Assembly (NCBI RefSeq): GCF_041886205.1
Contig: NZ_CP169029.1
DNA length: 64,000 nt
Source of the DNA: Escherichia coli
GTDB lineage: Bacteria; Pseudomonadota; Gammaproteobacteria; Enterobacterales; Enterobacteriaceae
Strand: one strand, 5' to 3'
Shown here: positions 1,945-62,840 of the stretch, one piece after another
Layout of the letters: every line of letters starts with the position of its first letter
How positions within the stretch are numbered: position 1 is the stretch's first letter
Made by a program: the position numbers and the translations under genes
Notes under the pieces: generated by a model
What the model saw: the letters and a program-made list of their open reading frames with translations, nothing else
Told to the model about the DNA's origin: nothing
Database searches by the model: none

Positions 1945-1986
1945 GTCATACCACTCGCCTGATTATTTTTAGCTATGTTGGATTTT

Positions 1987-2013
1987 GCCACGGTTTATAC
2001 CGTGGCTTTTTTT
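1987..2013 (+). terminator. rho-independent terminator after allE
   Basis: gccacgg/ccgtggc stem with tttata loop followed by T7 run. Confidence 0.6.
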
Positions 2014-2020
2014 GTAACAT

Positions 2021-2050
2021 TGCCTGATGCGCTTCGCTTATCAGGCCTAC
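2021..2050. repeat. REP element
   Basis: gcctgatgcg...cttatcaggcctac REP consensus. Confidence 0.7.
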
Positions 2051-2097
2051 ATGATCTCTGCAATATATAGAATTTGCGCGATTTTCAGGAAGGATAT

Positions 2098-15074: not shown

Positions 15075-15137
15075 TGGGCGGTATTCTGAAACGGCGATTG
15101 TCGTGAGAACAGAATGGTTGCACCAGAATACAGATAT

Positions 15138-15167
15138 AAAAAAACCGACATGACAGTCGGTTTTTTT
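15138..15167. terminator. bidirectional rho-independent terminator (A7-ccgac-atgaca-gtcgg-T7)
   Basis: 5-bp GC-rich stem flanked by A-run and T-run, 64 bp downstream of selU stop. Confidence 0.6.
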
Positions 15168-15226
15168 ATTTTTTCCGCCCAAGACTTGGTGGTTCCGGGC
15201 AGAAATGAAACAGTCCTCATCTAGCA
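15138..15226 (-). ncRNA. putative antisense sRNA (candidate type I antitoxin); ends approximate
   Basis: Minus-strand TTGAAT-17bp-TATAAT promoter (15232-15260), predicted transcript contains UGCUAGAUGAGGACUG complementary to 15397-15412, ends at the bidirectional terminator. Confidence 0.35.
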
Positions 15227-15231
15227 AGTGA

Positions 15232-15260
15232 ATTATAAGTCAGGATGCCTCCATATTCAA
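15232..15260 (-). promoter_or_regulatory. candidate sigma70 promoter for the putative sRNA
   Basis: -35 ttgaat (15255-15260), 17-bp spacer, perfect -10 tataat (15232-15237) on the minus strand. Confidence 0.35.
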
Positions 15261-15376
15261 ACAGCTATGTTGGCGATACAATCCCGACGCTAGTAGTGAT
15301 ACTGCCTCAAGGGATTACCGCAGTGCGGAAAAGTACTTTTAAGTCCTGGTCAGGATACAGGTGGTGCTGATTCTGG

Positions 15377-15385
15377 TGCTCTAAT
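15377..15385 (+). promoter_or_regulatory. candidate extended -10 promoter for the small-peptide mRNA
   Basis: tgctctaat resembles TGnTATAAT; -35 is poor. Confidence 0.25.
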
Positions 15386-15485
15386 TTGGAGAGAGGCAGT
15401 CCTCATCTAGCACATGAAGAAAATCATAGTTACAGGCAACGTAAGGGTAAGCTGTGATTGTCTTTCTCCCTTAAGGGAGCAACGG

Positions 15486-15569
15486 ATGAAAACTTTTCTC
15501 GATAAAGTTCTCATCGTTCTTAAGGCGCTAATCGCGCTGCTGGAACTGATCCGTCAGTTTATTGAATAA
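15486..15569 (+). CDS. 27-aa hydrophobic peptide MKTFLDKVLIVLKALIALLELIRQFIE, DinQ/TisB-like candidate type I toxin
   Basis: ATG preceded by aagggag SD 7 nt upstream; single amphipathic helix; own hairpin terminator; in-frame upstream ATG at 15414 would give 51 aa. Confidence 0.5.
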   Translation: MKTFLDKVLIVLKALIALLELIRQFIE

Positions 15570-15587
15570 CTGAGGAAACGTAGCTAA

Positions 15588-15615
15588 GGCCGAAGGTTTA
15601 CCACCTTCGGTCTTT
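15588..15615 (+). terminator. hairpin terminator after the small ORF
   Basis: ccgaaggt-ttacc-accttcgg stem-loop followed by TCTTT. Confidence 0.5.
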
Positions 15616-15670
15616 AAAAAAACCGACATGACAGTTGGTTTCATATTTATTGCCAAAATGCACACTGTTC

Positions 15671-15771
<101 letters not shown>

Positions 15772-15786
15772 ATCTAACACCTGTCA

Positions 15787-27237: not shown

Positions 27238-29742
27238 ATGTCACAAACTATCGACCTGACCCTGGACGGCCTGTCCTGCGGTCACTGCGTTAAACGCGTG
27301 AAAGAAAGTCTTGAACAGCGTCCGGATGTTGAGCAGGCGGATGTGTCTATCACTGAAGCGCACGTTACCGGGACTGCCAGTGCAGAACAGCTGATCGAAA
27401 CCATCAAACAAGCGGGTTATGACGCATCTGTAAGCCACCCAAAGGCTAAACCGCTGGCGGAGTCATCAATCCCGTCGGAAGCACTGACAGCGGTTTCTGA
27501 GGCGCTTCCGGCAGCGACCGCCGATGACGATGACAGCCAGCAGTTGCTGCTGAGCGGCATGAGCTGCGCCAGCTGTGTCACCCGCGTACAAAATGCGTTG
27601 CAAAGCGTACCGGGCGTCACTCAGGCACGGGTAAACCTGGCGGAGCGTACTGCGCTGGTGATGGGCAGTGCCTCCCCACAAGATTTAGTGCAGGCGGTGG
27701 AAAAAGCGGGCTACGGTGCGGAAGCGATTGAAGATGACGCTAAACGCCGCGAGCGCCAGCAAGAAACCGCCGTAGCTACGATGAAGCGCTTCCGCTGGCA
27801 GGCAATTGTTGCACTGGCTGTGGGTATCCCGGTAATGGTCTGGGGGATGATCGGCGATAACATGATGGTCACCGCTGACAACCGCAGCTTGTGGTTAGTT
27901 ATCGGCCTGATAACCCTGGCAGTGATGGTTTTCGCCGGCGGCCATTTTTACCGCAGTGCATGGAAAAGCCTGCTGAACGGTGCAGCGACGATGGATACGC
28001 TGGTGGCGCTGGGAACGGGTGTGGCGTGGCTCTATTCGATGAGCGTCAACCTGTGGCCGCAGTGGTTCCCGATGGAAGCGCGGCATCTTTACTATGAAGC
28101 CAGTGCGATGATTATCGGTCTGATTAATCTCGGCCATATGCTGGAAGCGCGCGCACGTCAGCGTTCTTCTAAGGCGCTGGAGAAATTACTCGATTTAACC
28201 CCACCGACGGCGCGAGTGGTCACCGCAGAGGGTGAAAAAAGCGTGCCGCTGGCGGAAGTTCAGCCAGGGATGTTACTGCGCCTGACGACCGGCGATCGCG
28301 TGCCGGTAGATGGCGAGATTACCCAGGGCGAAGCATGGCTGGATGAAGCGATGCTGACGGGCGAACCAATCCCACAGCAAAAAGGCGAAGGCGAAAGCGT
28401 CCATGCCGGGACAGTGGTACAGGACGGCAGTGTGCTGTTTCGTGCCAGTGCGGTTGGCAGCCATACCACGCTGTCACGGATCATTCGCATGGTGCGCCAG
28501 GCCCAGAGCAGCAAGCCAGAAATCGGTCAGCTGGCGGATAAAATCTCAGCCGTATTTGTACCTGTGGTGGTGGTGATTGCGCTGGTCAGTGCGGCAATCT
28601 GGTACTTCTTTGGTCCGGCACCGCAAATTGTTTATACCCTGGTGATTGCCACCACGGTACTGATTATCGCCTGTCCGTGTGCGCTGGGGCTGGCGACGCC
28701 GATGTCGATTATTTCCGGCGTCGGGCGGGCGGCTGAGTTTGGCGTGCTGGTGCGGGACGCCGACGCGCTGCAACGCGCCAGTACACTCGATACCGTCGTG
28801 TTCGATAAAACCGGGACGCTGACCGAAGGGAAGCCGCAGGTTGTCGCAGTGAAAACGTTTGCTGATGTTGATGAAGCGCAGGCATTGCGTCTGGCGGCGG
28901 CACTGGAGCAAGGTTCCAGCCATCCGCTGGCACGGGCGATCCTCGATAAAGCAGGTGATATGCAGCTGCCGCAGGTCAACGGTTTCCGCACATTGCGCGG
29001 GCTGGGCGTGAGCGGTGAAGCTGAAGGTCATGCGTTATTGCTGGGCAATCAGGCGCTGTTAAATGAGCAACAGGTTGGTACCAAAGCTATCGAAGCGGAG
29101 ATTACTGCTCAGGCATCGCAAGGAGCAACGCCTGTGCTGCTGGCGATTGACGGGAAAGCAATAGCCCTGCTGGCTGTACGCGATCCGTTGCGTAGTGATA
29201 GCGTGGCGGCGCTGCAACGCCTGCATAAAGCGGGATATCGTCTGGTGATGTTGACCGGGGATAACCCAACCACCGCCAATGCGATCGCCAAAGAAGCCGG
29301 GATTGATGAGGTGATAGCCGGGGTGCTGCCGGACGGTAAAGCCGAAGCGATCAAACGTCTGCAAAGTGAAGGACGTCAGGTGGCAATGGTGGGCGACGGC
29401 ATTAACGATGCGCCAGCGCTGGCCCAGGCAGATGTCGGCATTGCAATGGGCGGCGGCAGTGATGTTGCCATTGAAACCGCGGCGATTACCCTGATGCGCC
29501 ATAGCCTGATGGGCGTTGCGGATGCGCTCGCTATTTCCCGCGCAACGCTGCGCAACATGAAGCAGAACCTGCTCGGCGCGTTTATCTACAACAGTATCGG
29601 TATTCCGGTCGCCGCCGGTATTTTGTGGCCGTTTACTGGAACACTGCTTAACCCGGTGGTTGCCGGAGCGGCAATGGCGCTCTCGTCGATTACCGTAGTG
29701 AGTAACGCCAACCGGTTGCTGCGGTTTAAACCGAAGGAATAA
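27238..29742 (+). CDS. copA: Cu(I)-exporting P1B-type ATPase
   Basis: Two GMSCxxC metal-binding domains, [16 protein letters not shown] motifs, 834 aa. Confidence 0.95.
27438..27444 (+). promoter_or_regulatory. copA programmed -1 frameshift slippery site
   Basis: CCCAAAG at codons 68-69; -1 frame reads GGC then TAA stop, giving the short CopA(Z) product. Confidence 0.6.
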
Positions 29743-29749
29743 GTACGTC

Positions 29750-30038
<289 letters not shown>

Positions 30039-30536: not shown

Positions 30537-31331
30537 ATGGATCTGTTGTACCGGGTAAAAACGCTTTGGGCCGCGCTGCGCGGTAATCATTACACCTGGC
30601 CTGCCATCGATATCACCCTCCCCGGCAATCGCCATTTTCATCTGATTGGCAGTATTCATATGGGTAGCCACGATATGGCTCCCCTGCCCACCCGTTTGCT
30701 CAAAAAGCTCAAAAACGCCGATGCGCTGATCGTCGAGGCGGATGTTTCCACCAGTGATACGCCTTTTGCTAATTTGCCTGCCTGCGAGGCGCTGGAAGAG
30801 CGCATTAGCGAGGAGCAACTCCAAAACCTGCAGCACATTAGCCAGGAGATGGGCATTTCTCCCTCGCTCTTTTCTACCCAACCGCTGTGGCAAATCGCGA
30901 TGGTTCTTCAGGCGACGCAGGCACAAAAACTGGGGCTGCGGGCAGAATACGGTATCGATTACCAGCTATTGCAGGCGGCGAAGCAACAACATAAACCCGT
31001 GATTGAACTGGAAGGGGCTGAAAACCAGATTGCCATGTTGCTCCAGCTCCCTGACAAAGGACTGGCGCTGCTGGACGATACGCTGACCCACTGGCATACC
31101 AACGCACGGTTGCTGCAACAAATGATGAGCTGGTGGCTGAATGCACCGCCGCAAAATAATGATATAACGCTGCCCAATACGTTCAGTCAGTCGCTGTACG
31201 ATGTGCTGATGCATCAGCGAAATCTCGCCTGGCGGGATAAATTACGCGCCATGCCGCCGGGGCGATATGTGGTCGCGGTCGGTGCACTACACCTGTATGG
31301 AGAAGGGAATTTGCCGCAAATGTTGCGCTAA
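30537..31331 (+). CDS. ybaP: TraB-family protein
   Basis: 264-aa ORF, synteny. Confidence 0.85.
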   Translation: MDLLYRVKTLWAALRGNHYTWPAIDITLPGNRHFHLIGSIHMGSHDMAPLPTRLLKKLKNADALIVEADVSTSDTPFANLPACEALEERISEEQLQNLQHISQEMGISPSLFSTQPLWQIAMVLQATQAQKLGLRAEYGIDYQLLQAAKQQHKPVIELEGAENQIAMLLQLPDKGLALLDDTLTHWHTNARLLQQMMSWWLNAPPQNNDITLPNTFSQSLYDVLMHQRNLAWRDKLRAMPPGRYVVAVGALHLYGEGNLPQMLR

Positions 31332-31413
31332 AAAAATGGCCAATATCGCTATTGGCCCGTCAAAGAGGAATTTCATTTTTTTATTATTATGCCGTCACTT
31401 TAAGCGACGGTGT
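31331..31413 (-). ncRNA. chiX: sRNA ChiX (MicM/SroB)
   Basis: Minus-strand sequence acaccgtcgcttaaagtgacggcataataataaaaaaatgaaattcctctttgacgggccaatagcgatattggcc + U-run matches ChiX from memory; terminator hairpin ggccaata/tattggcc. Confidence 0.85.
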
Positions 31414-37088: not shown

Positions 37089-37173
37089 GTAGGCATGATA
37101 AGACGCGCCAGCGTCGCATCAGGCATCGAGAGCCAAATGCCAGATGCGGCGTGAACGCCTTATCTGGCCTACG
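37089..37173. repeat. BIME (REP pair)
   Basis: gtaggcatgataagacgcg...catcaggca and tgccagatgcggcgtgaacgccttatctggcctac. Confidence 0.75.
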
Positions 37174-40561: not shown

Positions 40562-40692
40562 TACCGCCTCTTATCGATTCAACTTGTTGATAATTGTAGC
40601 GGAAAAGTGAAGAAGAAGAACTAATTGCTGTAAGAGGTATTGCCTGAGGAGGATGAGCAGACCTGCCCGAAAGCAGATCTGCTGCGGCTTGA

Positions 40693-44488: not shown

Positions 44489-46420
44489 TCAAATGGGGCG
44501 GATACTTTCTTCATCCAGCTCCGCATCGAAAAACCGACGCAGGGTCTGAATATTATTATCCGCAATAATGGACTCGCGCGCCTGCGCAAGTTTTTCTTCG
44601 TATATCGCCTGACGCCACTCCAGCGGCGTACGCACCGCGGGATTATCATCTTCAACGATAGTCAGTTCAACCGTTGAACCTTTTAACATGCTCAACGCTT
44701 CAGCCAGTTTTTGCTGTGCACCGCGGTTGTTCAAATGCCGCTGAGAGGAGCGCAAATGCAGACATACTGCGTTGTCGCTCTCCTCTTTCCAGGCATTTAA
44801 CGCCACCTGTTCGACCAGTTTTGGTAGCGAAAGTTGGCTCACCTGTGCCGCCCACGGGTCGCGCTCAATGGCTTCTGCCGCCAGCTTCGCCGCCAGTTCC
44901 GGCGTTTTTTCATGTTCCAGCGCTTTTTTCAGCGCCTTCGGCGTGGCGACCACTTCTTTTTGCTGCATCACTGGAGTGGTAGCCTTCCAGCGATACGCTT
45001 CTTTTTTGGCTGGCGCTTTTTCCAGCGCCGATGGCACCGGACGCGCCTGAACGCGATCGGTGACCGAAGCCAGTCTTTCCAGCGCAGCGTTATTCACCGG
45101 CCGCGCGCGGGTAGCGGCTGCCGGTTCACTCTTTTTTGCTTTGGTTGCTCCCTGCACGCGCTGCAACTGCTGGCGCGCCGCCAGCACCTGGCTGGTGGTT
45201 TCCGGGAGCGGTACAGTCGGTGCCTGCTGCGGCGCTGATTGCGGTTGCGGCGGCACCTGGGTTGGCGTCATTACTGCCGTTGGCGCGACGGGCGCAAAGG
45301 ACTGGCGTGGCACTTCTGGCTCAGGCAGAGGCATACGTGGATGGAACGCCAGCGCGCGCAGCAGCGTCATCTCAACGCCCATGCGGCGGTCCGGCGCATA
45401 CGGTAATTCTTTGCGACCAATCAACAGCGTCTGATAGTAAAGCTGAATATCCGTCGGCGGTATGGTGCGCGCCAGTTCACGCATCCGCAGCTCAATGGCG
45501 GCCATGTCGTTGCCAAGTGCAGCAGGCGAAAGTTGTACCATCGCAATACGATGCAACAGGCCGAGCATTTCCACCAGCAACGCTTCCCACTCGATACCAC
45601 GGGCAGCGGCTTCATTAATCAGCGCCATTACGCGCTCGCCGTTGGCCTCGACCATCGCTTCAACCAGCGACAGCGCCTGATCGTCATCAAGCGTACCCAG
45701 CATCGCACTGACTGCCTGGGTTGAAACCTGGCCGTCACCGCTGGCAATCGCCTGGTCGGTCAGACTTAAGGCATCTCGCAGGCTGCCTTCAGCGGCGCGC
45801 GCCAGCAATTGCAACGCCCGCGGCTCGTGAGCGATATGTTCTTCGTTGAGGATGTGCTCAAGTTGATGGCGAATTTGCTCGACATCCAGCGCCTTGAGAT
45901 GAAATTGCAAACAGCGCGACAAAATCGTCACCGGCAATTTCTGTGGATCGGTCGTCGCCAGCAGAAACTTAACGTGCTCCGGCGGCTCTTCAAGGGTTTT
46001 TAACAGTGCGTTAAAGCTGTGGCGCGACAGCATATGCACTTCGTCGATCAGATAAACTTTGAAACGACCACGCGCCGGAGCGTACTGGACGTTATCCAGC
46101 AGGTCGCGGGTATCTTCAACTTTGGTGCGCGAGGCGGCGTCGATTTCAATCAGATCGACAAAGCGCCCCTGCTCGATTTCACGACAGTTATCGCACACGC
46201 CGCACGGCGTCGCGGTAATGCCGGTTTCGCAGTTTAGCCCCTTCGCCAGCAGTCGGGCGATAGAGGTTTTTCCGACGCCACGGGTGCCGGAAAAAAGATA
46301 AGCATGATGAATACGCCCTAACGACAAGCCGTTCGCCAGTGCGGTCAGCACATGTTCCTGGCCGACGACGTCAGCAAAGGTTTGTGGGCGCCATTTTCGG
46401 GCTAAGACCTGATAACTCAT
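44489..46420 (-). CDS. dnaX: DNA polymerase III tau/gamma subunits
   Basis: 643-aa ORF with AAA+ Walker A GTRGVGKT. Confidence 0.95.
   Translation of the reverse strand: MSYQVLARKWRPQTFADVVGQEHVLTALANGLSLGRIHHAYLFSGTRGVGKTSIARLLAKGLNCETGITATPCGVCDNCREIEQGRFVDLIEIDAASRTKVEDTRDLLDNVQYAPARGRFKVYLIDEVHMLSRHSFNALLKTLEEPPEHVKFLLATTDPQKLPVTILSRCLQFHLKALDVEQIRHQLEHILNEEHIAHEPRALQLLARAAEGSLRDALSLTDQAIASGDGQVSTQAVSAMLGTLDDDQALSLVEAMVEANGERVMALINEAAARGIEWEALLVEMLGLLHRIAMVQLSPAALGNDMAAIELRMRELARTIPPTDIQLYYQTLLIGRKELPYAPDRRMGVEMTLLRALAFHPRMPLPEPEVPRQSFAPVAPTAVMTPTQVPPQPQSAPQQAPTVPLPETTSQVLAARQQLQRVQGATKAKKSEPAAATRARPVNNAALERLASVTDRVQARPVPSALEKAPAKKEAYRWKATTPVMQQKEVVATPKALKKALEHEKTPELAAKLAAEAIERDPWAAQVSQLSLPKLVEQVALNAWKEESDNAVCLHLRSSQRHLNNRGAQQKLAEALSMLKGSTVELTIVEDDNPAVRTPLEWRQAIYEEKLAQARESIIADNNIQTLRRFFDAELDEESIRPI
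45129..45135 (-). promoter_or_regulatory. dnaX programmed -1 frameshift site (A AAA AAG)
   Basis: Plus-strand cttttttt = minus-strand AAAAAAG; -1 frame reads GAG then UGA. Confidence 0.8.
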
Positions 46421-57299: not shown

Positions 57300-57447
57300 A
57301 TGCATAACCTACGAACATTAAGGAGTAATTGAACCACCAACTCAGGATCTCATACGAAAACCAGTATTAACCTCGCATAAAATTCATAAAAAATACTGAT
57401 TGTTAGTTAATTTATATTAAGTAGCGCTAATAGGTAATGACTCCAAC

Positions 57448-57951
57448 TTATTGATAGTGTTTTATGTTCAGATAATGCCCGATGACTTTGTCATGCAGCT
57501 CCACCGATTTTGAGAACGACAGCGACTTCCGTCCCAGCCGTGCCAGGTGCTGTCTCAGATTCAGGTTATGCCGCTCAATTCGCTGCGTATATCGCTTGCT
57601 GATTACGTGCAGCTTTCCCTTCAGGCGGGATTCATACAGCGGCCAGCCATCCGTCATCCATATCACCACGTCAAAGGGTGACAGCAGGCTCATAAGACGC
57701 CCCAGCGTCGCCATAGTGCGTTCACCGAATACGTGCGCAACAACCGTCTTCCGGAGCCTGTCATACGCGTAAAACAGCCAGCGCTGGCGCGATTTAGCCC
57801 CGACATAGCCCCACTGTTCGTCCATTTCCGCGCAGACGATGACGTCACTGCCCGGCTGTATGCGCGAGGTTACCGACTGCGGCCTGAGTTTTTTAAATGG
57901 CGGAAAATCGTGTTGAGGCCAACGCCCATAATGCGGGCGGTTGCCCGGCAT
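57448..57951 (-). CDS. insB: IS1 InsB (expressed as InsAB' by -1 frameshift at A6C, 57888-57894)
   Basis: 167-aa ORF overlapping insA; AAAAAAC motif on the minus strand. Confidence 0.9.
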
Positions 57952-58145
57952 CCAACGCCATTCATGGCCATATCAATGATTTTCTGGTGCGTACCGGGTT
58001 GAGAAGCGGTGTAAGTGAACTGCAGTTGCCATGTTTTACGGCAGTGAGAGCAGAGATAGCGCTGATGTCCGGCGGTGCTTTTGCCGTTACGCACCACCCC
58101 GTCAGTAGCTGAACAGGAGGGACAGCTGATAGAAACAGAAGCCAC
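57870..58145 (-). CDS. insA: IS1 InsA
   Basis: 91-aa [46 protein letters not shown]... Confidence 0.92.
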
Positions 58146-58580
58146 TGGAGCACCTCAAAAACACCATCATACACTAAATCAGTAAGTTGGCAGCATCACC
58201 GCGCTAATAGATTTAATAATCCATAATCATTTAGAGGCTATTCTTAATTATTTGCGGTAATTCTTTATTCATTCCTCGGTTATTACGTCATATTCAGAGC
58301 AATCCTGGTATTAGTGTCACCAATGTCATCTGGCGATAATCCTGAAATGTTATGAACTGTTCGAGCAAACTGCTTTTACCTACTGCGGGTTGGTGCTAGT
58401 ATGAAAAAGTGAGTCCTGTCCTGCTTCCTTCCTAATTGTAATTTTTCGTAATAATGCGATGAAAACCTGCAAAGAGTGGCTTATAGTTAAGCTAACAAAC
58501 GAGAGGGCAAGTCTAGGTCAGTAAGTTTTTTCCATCCCGAAAGGTGTCCGTTAGTTCAACCACTAAGAAGGGGACGCGTT

Positions 58581-62726: not shown

Positions 62727-62840
62727 GGGTGGGGGCCCTGCCAGCTACATCCCGGCACACGCGTCATCTGCCTTGGCTGCTTCCTTCCGGACCTGACCTG
62801 GTAAACAGAGTAGCGTTGCGGGAGAACCAACAGAGCCCCC
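62727..62840 (-). ncRNA. ffs: 4.5S RNA (SRP RNA)
   Basis: Reverse complement reads GGGGGCUCUGUUGGUUCUCCCGCAACGC...GGCAGGGCCCCCACCC, 114 nt, matching 4.5S RNA from memory. Confidence 0.95.

Follow-up and report, generated by a model that had tools for sequence, protein, structure and literature searches.

Programmed -1 ribosomal frameshifting in dnaX is a founding example of this kind of recoding in bacteria and has become a standard model for mechanistic work. In Escherichia coli ~50% of the ribosomes change to the -1 frame and stop one codon further on, and tau and gamma are made in similar amounts (PMC5009743). The codons AAA and AAG of the slippery sequence are decoded by a sole tRNA-Lys, and both tRNAs re-pair on AAA AAA (PMC6771820, PMC5389563). 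Two stimulators act on the ribosome in this process: a downstream hairpin retards the EF-G-driven translocation of both tRNAs, and an upstream Shine-Dalgarno (SD)-like element pairs with 16S rRNA (PMC6771820, PMC5389563). The role of this internal SD-like element in dnaX shifting has been described (PMC5389563, PMC5009743).

The same gene can reach two products by another route. In Thermus thermophilus one dnaX ORF likewise gives tau and gamma in roughly equal amounts (PMC5009743), but there the mRNA itself carries the altered frame, at a longer stretch of A's, whereas the E. coli site has six A's and stimulators that act on the ribosome. IS1 insAB' and copA resemble E. coli dnaX in carrying -1 heptamers of the X XXY YYZ type within the coding sequence that lead to a second product, although their heptamers and stimulators differ from those of dnaX. 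The outcome of the shift also differs, since IS1 gains a longer fusion protein (the transposase) and both dnaX and copA give a truncated product.

Here we describe the dnaX shift site in a stretch of 64,000 nucleotides of E. coli DNA, referred to as the window. The initial annotation had filed the site as known biology, and rightly so: it is almost certainly the canonical cassette for programmed -1 ribosomal frameshifting in E. coli dnaX, which was already known and is found unchanged here, with nothing new added. Heptamer, phase, Glu-stop, AGGGAG spacing, hairpin spacing and the lengths of tau and gamma are all the same as in K-12; elsewhere in the gene, 18 synonymous substitutions are all that sets the two sequences apart.

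The dnaX gene and its tau product

Judged from its sequence, the 643-codon minus-strand ORF that holds the site is dnaX (Table 1). Its match to the NCBIfam equivalog NF005942 “DNA polymerase III subunit gamma/tau” reaches 981.9 bits, where the cut-off is 613, and the gene order around the ORF, apt-dnaX-ybaB-recR-htpG, is that of K-12. A protein comparison found the encoded tau to be that of K-12 MG1655 over all 643 aa, with no residue changed; each of the 18 nucleotide differences between the two genes (1932 nt) is synonymous. Five RefSeq E. coli chromosomes carry an annotated dnaX that is 100% identical at the DNA level to the gene in the window. Across complete E. coli genomes, 5424 of 5426 match the window gene at 95-100% identity, and for 2274 of these 5424 the identity over the whole of dnaX is merely 95-99%.

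Table 1. Position of the dnaX frameshift cassette, its products and other features in the window
Feature	Position	Strand	Basis or remark
dnaX 0-frame ORF (tau, 643 aa + stop)	44489..46420	-	ORF list, translation, NCBIfam, K-12 comparison
Gamma coding region	45126..46420	-	Shift modelled by script; K-12 CDS join
Rfam RF00382 DnaX ribosomal frameshifting element, 65 nt	45092..45156	-	Rfam match
SD-like stimulator AGGGAG	45148..45153	-	Sequence; positions 4-9 of the Rfam DnaX model alignment
Slippery heptamer A AAA AAG (Lys429-Lys430 codons)	45131..45137	-	Phase X XXY YYZ, computed
-1 frame codons GAG UGA (Glu, stop), end of gamma	45126..45131	-	Sequence, modelled shift
3' stimulatory stem-loop	45096..45125	-	Minimum-free-energy fold, Rfam consensus, covariation
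copA -1 site C CCA AAG	27438..27444	+	Shift phase; copA starts at 27238
IS1 copy, 768 bp	57433..58200	-	InsA 91 aa, InsB 167 aa; NCBIfam IS1 family transposase
IS1 heptamer A AAA AAC	57894..57888	-	X XXY YYZ phase with insA
DinQ-like type I toxin ORF	about 15486..15569	+	NF041472, 38.4 bits
AgrB antisense-RNA match	15136..15224	-	Rfam

The slippery heptamer, its phase and the end of gamma

The minus-strand sequence of 45156..45092, UGCAGGGAGCAACCAAAGCAAAAAAGAGUGAACCGGCAGCCGCUACCCGCGCGCGGCCGGUGAAU, lies inside the dnaX ORF, and the minus-strand reading around the shift site itself is CAGGGAGCAACCAAAGCAAAAAAGAGTGAACCGGCAGCCGCTACCCGCGCGCGGCCGGTGAAT. Both elements that the initial annotation had named, a minus-strand A AAA AAG heptamer in dnaX and GAG UGA after it in the -1 frame, are present at the positions listed in Table 1. 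The heptamer is also in the phase that such a site needs in the dnaX 0 frame, X XXY YYZ: counted from 46420, the first base of AAAAAAG is position 1284 of the ORF, a third codon position, and the 0-frame codons across it read GCA AAA AAG AGU GAA. The range first given for the signal, 45100..45135, spans GAG TGA and most of the hairpin but is too short on its upstream side, where it omits the A's at 45137 and 45136 and the whole of AGGGAG.

Gamma was modelled by reading the 0 frame from 46420 to 45131, re-reading 45131 in a -1 slip and continuing with GAG TGA. The product is 431 aa long and has the C-terminus ...TKAKKE, with ...Lys-Lys-Glu where tau reads ...Lys-Lys-Ser-Glu. Its endpoint is that of the K-12 gamma CDS (join 492092..493386), which stops at gene position 1295. 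Gamma production, as initially proposed, is thus supported by the identity of the gene, by the phase of the heptamer and by a Glu-stop that is the one of K-12 gamma.

The heptamer alone was dropped as evidence, as the window holds 22 copies of bare AAAAAAG where 14.8 would be expected, two extra ones being in dnaX itself. These two runs, at 45007..45001 (-) and 44929..44923 (-), are in phase 0 (AAA AAA G) and not in the shift phase; both lie downstream of the shift site and at positions at which the window equals K-12. The composite of heptamer and GAGTGA, AAAAAAGAGTGA, has a single copy in the window and an expectation of 0 in shuffles.

Stimulators and the full cassette

AGGGAG is separated from the heptamer by a spacer of 10 nt (45147..45138 (-)), and the stem-loop starts 5 nt (AGUGA) past the heptamer; both distances agree with those in the literature. 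The outer helix of the stem-loop, 6 bp long (ACCGGC/GCCGGU), encloses an inner helix that is imperfect and G+C-rich. The minimum-free-energy fold has -19.1 kcal/mol and accounts for 46% of the ensemble, and its base pairs are those of the Rfam consensus structure. Compared with dinucleotide shuffles the hairpin reaches z = -2.6, with 3 of 200 shuffles folding equally well, a modest value because the region is G+C-rich; the comparative evidence given below supports the hairpin more strongly than this z-score does. When a longer stretch of 55 nt was folded in ViennaRNA, outer pairs overlapping the heptamer appeared, which are weak and were discounted, the core hairpin being the constant feature.

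All of these elements are taken in by a single covariance model. The match to RF00382 runs over model positions 1-65 of 65 with 96.8 bits (gathering score 35) and E = 9e-21; a scan of the whole window against Rfam returns the same match. No sequence feature contradicting the reading as a frameshift cassette was found.

Conservation of the cassette

Of 5426 complete E. coli genomes, 5423 contain the 65-nt element, each in one copy. In 5372 of these 5423 the identity is at least 99%, and RefSeq labels the element “DnaX frameshifting element” in those genomes. Aligned with K-12 dnaX, the cassette of the window is identical, in agreement with the conservation claimed for it at the outset, and it sits within a 311-nt block of zero differences; the nearest differences from K-12 lie at distances of 156 nt on the upstream and 150 nt on the downstream side of the heptamer. 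We considered this block as a sign of constraint and dropped it: ~2.9 differences would be expected over its length, and the chance of finding none is ~5%.

Species-representative genomes were scanned with the pattern AGGGAG-N10-AAAAAAGAGTGA, which gave at least 120 matches. The pattern fixes the SD-like element, the heptamer and GAGTGA, so the cross-species set is informative on the conservation of the stem alone. Among the matches listed, the cassette is found in Citrobacter, Enterobacter, Kosakonia, Kluyvera, Pluralibacter, Pantoea, Erwinia, Mixta, Serratia, Buttiauxella and others. When 41 distinct sequences from these matches are aligned, the stem shows compensatory exchange: at its foot 25 sequences have an A-U pair and 14 a G-C pair, both sides being changed, and another pair goes from G-C to A-U in one Mixta sequence. 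The inner helix varies in sequence and retains its pairing in the enterobacterial sequences listed. In all but one of the enterobacterial cassettes listed the hairpin begins at the same place, and the sole exception, with a shortened hairpin, is Candidatus Pantoea persica (locus L055, minus strand).

This Candidatus Pantoea persica sequence retains the heptamer and GAGUGA, and its hairpin of ~5-7 bp (GCCGG...UCGGC) is shorter than that of other Pantoea. The short hairpin may reflect erosion of the stimulator in a symbiont.

Two groups of matches were set aside. About one third of the 120 matches listed are Collinsella contigs, which were excluded as they combine a real Shine-Dalgarno sequence with a GTG start and hold no frameshift cassette. 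This look-alike reads GTG CCA AAA AAG AGT GAG AGC... at the start of a conserved gene and is near-invariant among the matches listed (loci L005, L006, L015 and L016 and ~35 further contigs). A few scattered matches in Pirellulaceae, Thermoplasmata, Flavobacteriales, Clostridium and others come without the hairpin and look like chance.

Proposed mechanism and alternative origins of gamma

The elements described above suggest the following course of events. When the ribosome reaches A AAA AAG, two tRNA-Lys would occupy AAA and AAG; the hairpin 5 nt downstream would hinder translocation, and AGGGAG 10 nt upstream is predicted to pair with the 3' end of 16S rRNA. Jointly, the stimulators would favour a move of the tRNAs back by one base, to pair anew with AAA AAA. 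Ribosomes that have shifted would then read GAG (Glu) and UGA (stop) and release a 431-aa gamma that lacks the C-terminal domains of tau, and those that have not shifted would go on to the 643-aa tau. Because the cassette and its surroundings are identical to those of K-12, we infer that ~50% shifting, the production of gamma and the kinetic route described for K-12 would hold in this strain as well. The annotation of dnaX ought to list two products, tau and gamma.

The departures from this reading that we weighed are each improbable. It is very unlikely that trans-acting factors, or synonymous changes far from the site, give the strain a tau:gamma ratio unlike that of K-12, or that minor shift products come from the phase-0 runs downstream; the data give no hint of an altered ratio or of extra products, and the cassette with its 311 nt equals K-12.

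Less probable still, to a degree that makes it scarcely credible, is an origin of gamma in which RNA polymerase, and not the ribosome, slips on the A run. What speaks for it is that the site is a homopolymer of A and that T. thermophilus dnaX is documented to use transcriptional slippage (PMC5009743), but the run consists of six A's, and transcriptional slippage in bacteria has been described on runs of ~9 A or T (PMC5009743). Two stimulators that are specific to the ribosome are moreover conserved at the correct spacing, with 10 nt between the SD-like element and the heptamer and 5 nt between the heptamer and the hairpin, and defined dnaX mRNAs translated in vitro undergo ribosomal -1 shifting (PMC6771820, PMC5389563).

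Proteolysis of tau, which would make the cassette irrelevant to the short DnaX product, deserves the same very slight credence. This route has a precedent in Caulobacter crescentus, where a proteolytic origin of gamma is documented (PMC5009743), but the identical E. coli sequence has been reviewed as a case of 50% -1 shifting with a stop one codon later (PMC5009743). The C-terminal Glu of gamma (...KKE) is encoded in the -1 frame only and is not obtainable by cleaving tau, and RefSeq annotates a joined gamma CDS in K-12.

Least probable of all, and in effect refuted, is a chance pairing, devoid of programmed function, of heptamer and -1 stop in a lysine-rich linker. AAAAAAG is common by itself, as the surplus in the window and the two other copies in dnaX illustrate, but only the copy at 45137..45131 is in X XXY YYZ phase among the dnaX runs. 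Together with GAGTGA this copy forms a composite that occurs once in the window, where 0 would be expected, and the match of the whole cassette to a curated covariance model has the E-value given above. The cassette is near-invariant in 5423 E. coli genomes even though the identity of dnaX as a whole falls to 95-99% in 2274 of 5424, and it is retained in other genera with compensatory changes in the stem.

Other features of the window

The window is colinear with K-12 475,288-545,000 in inverted orientation, save three differences, and contains three known -1 recoding sites (dnaX, IS1 and copA). The presence of the dnaX cassette confirms that this stretch is a normal piece of E. coli chromosome. 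The copy of IS1 is inserted in the tomB-acrB intergenic region, at about 481,079-481,088 of K-12, where K-12 has none, and is flanked by a 9-bp target duplication, GCGCTAATA, at 57424..57432 and 58201..58209. The -1 product of copA is the 70-aa CopA(Z), ending ...SHPKG; the 100 nt around the copA site equal K-12, whose annotation names the joined CDS “soluble Cu(+) chaperone”.

The rhsD-ybbC-ylbH-ybbD-ylbI-ylbG block of K-12 (7.3 kb) is missing, and 707 bp are found instead at 15077..15783, the stretch that holds the DinQ-like ORF and the AgrB match of Table 1. This 707-bp stretch is found in 1314 complete E. coli genomes, and in the records of the best 10 of these 1314 a RefSeq dinQ is annotated under the match in 10 of 10. 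It would be a second locus of the dinQ/agrB type, apart from the arsR-gor site of K-12. The adk-hemH spacer (40639..40691) measures 53 bp, compared with 157 bp in K-12 (497,821-497,977), a length difference that may come from the presence or absence of a repetitive element.

Further Rfam matches at the gathering score are STnc480, ES036, three naRNA4 (REP-derived), sroB/ChiX and the 4.5S SRP RNA (ffs), with coordinates 1951..2085 (-), 29854..30032, 31330..31413 (-), 37092..37169 (-) and 62736..62832 (-). The sroB/ChiX and ffs matches coincide with chiX and ffs as annotated in K-12.
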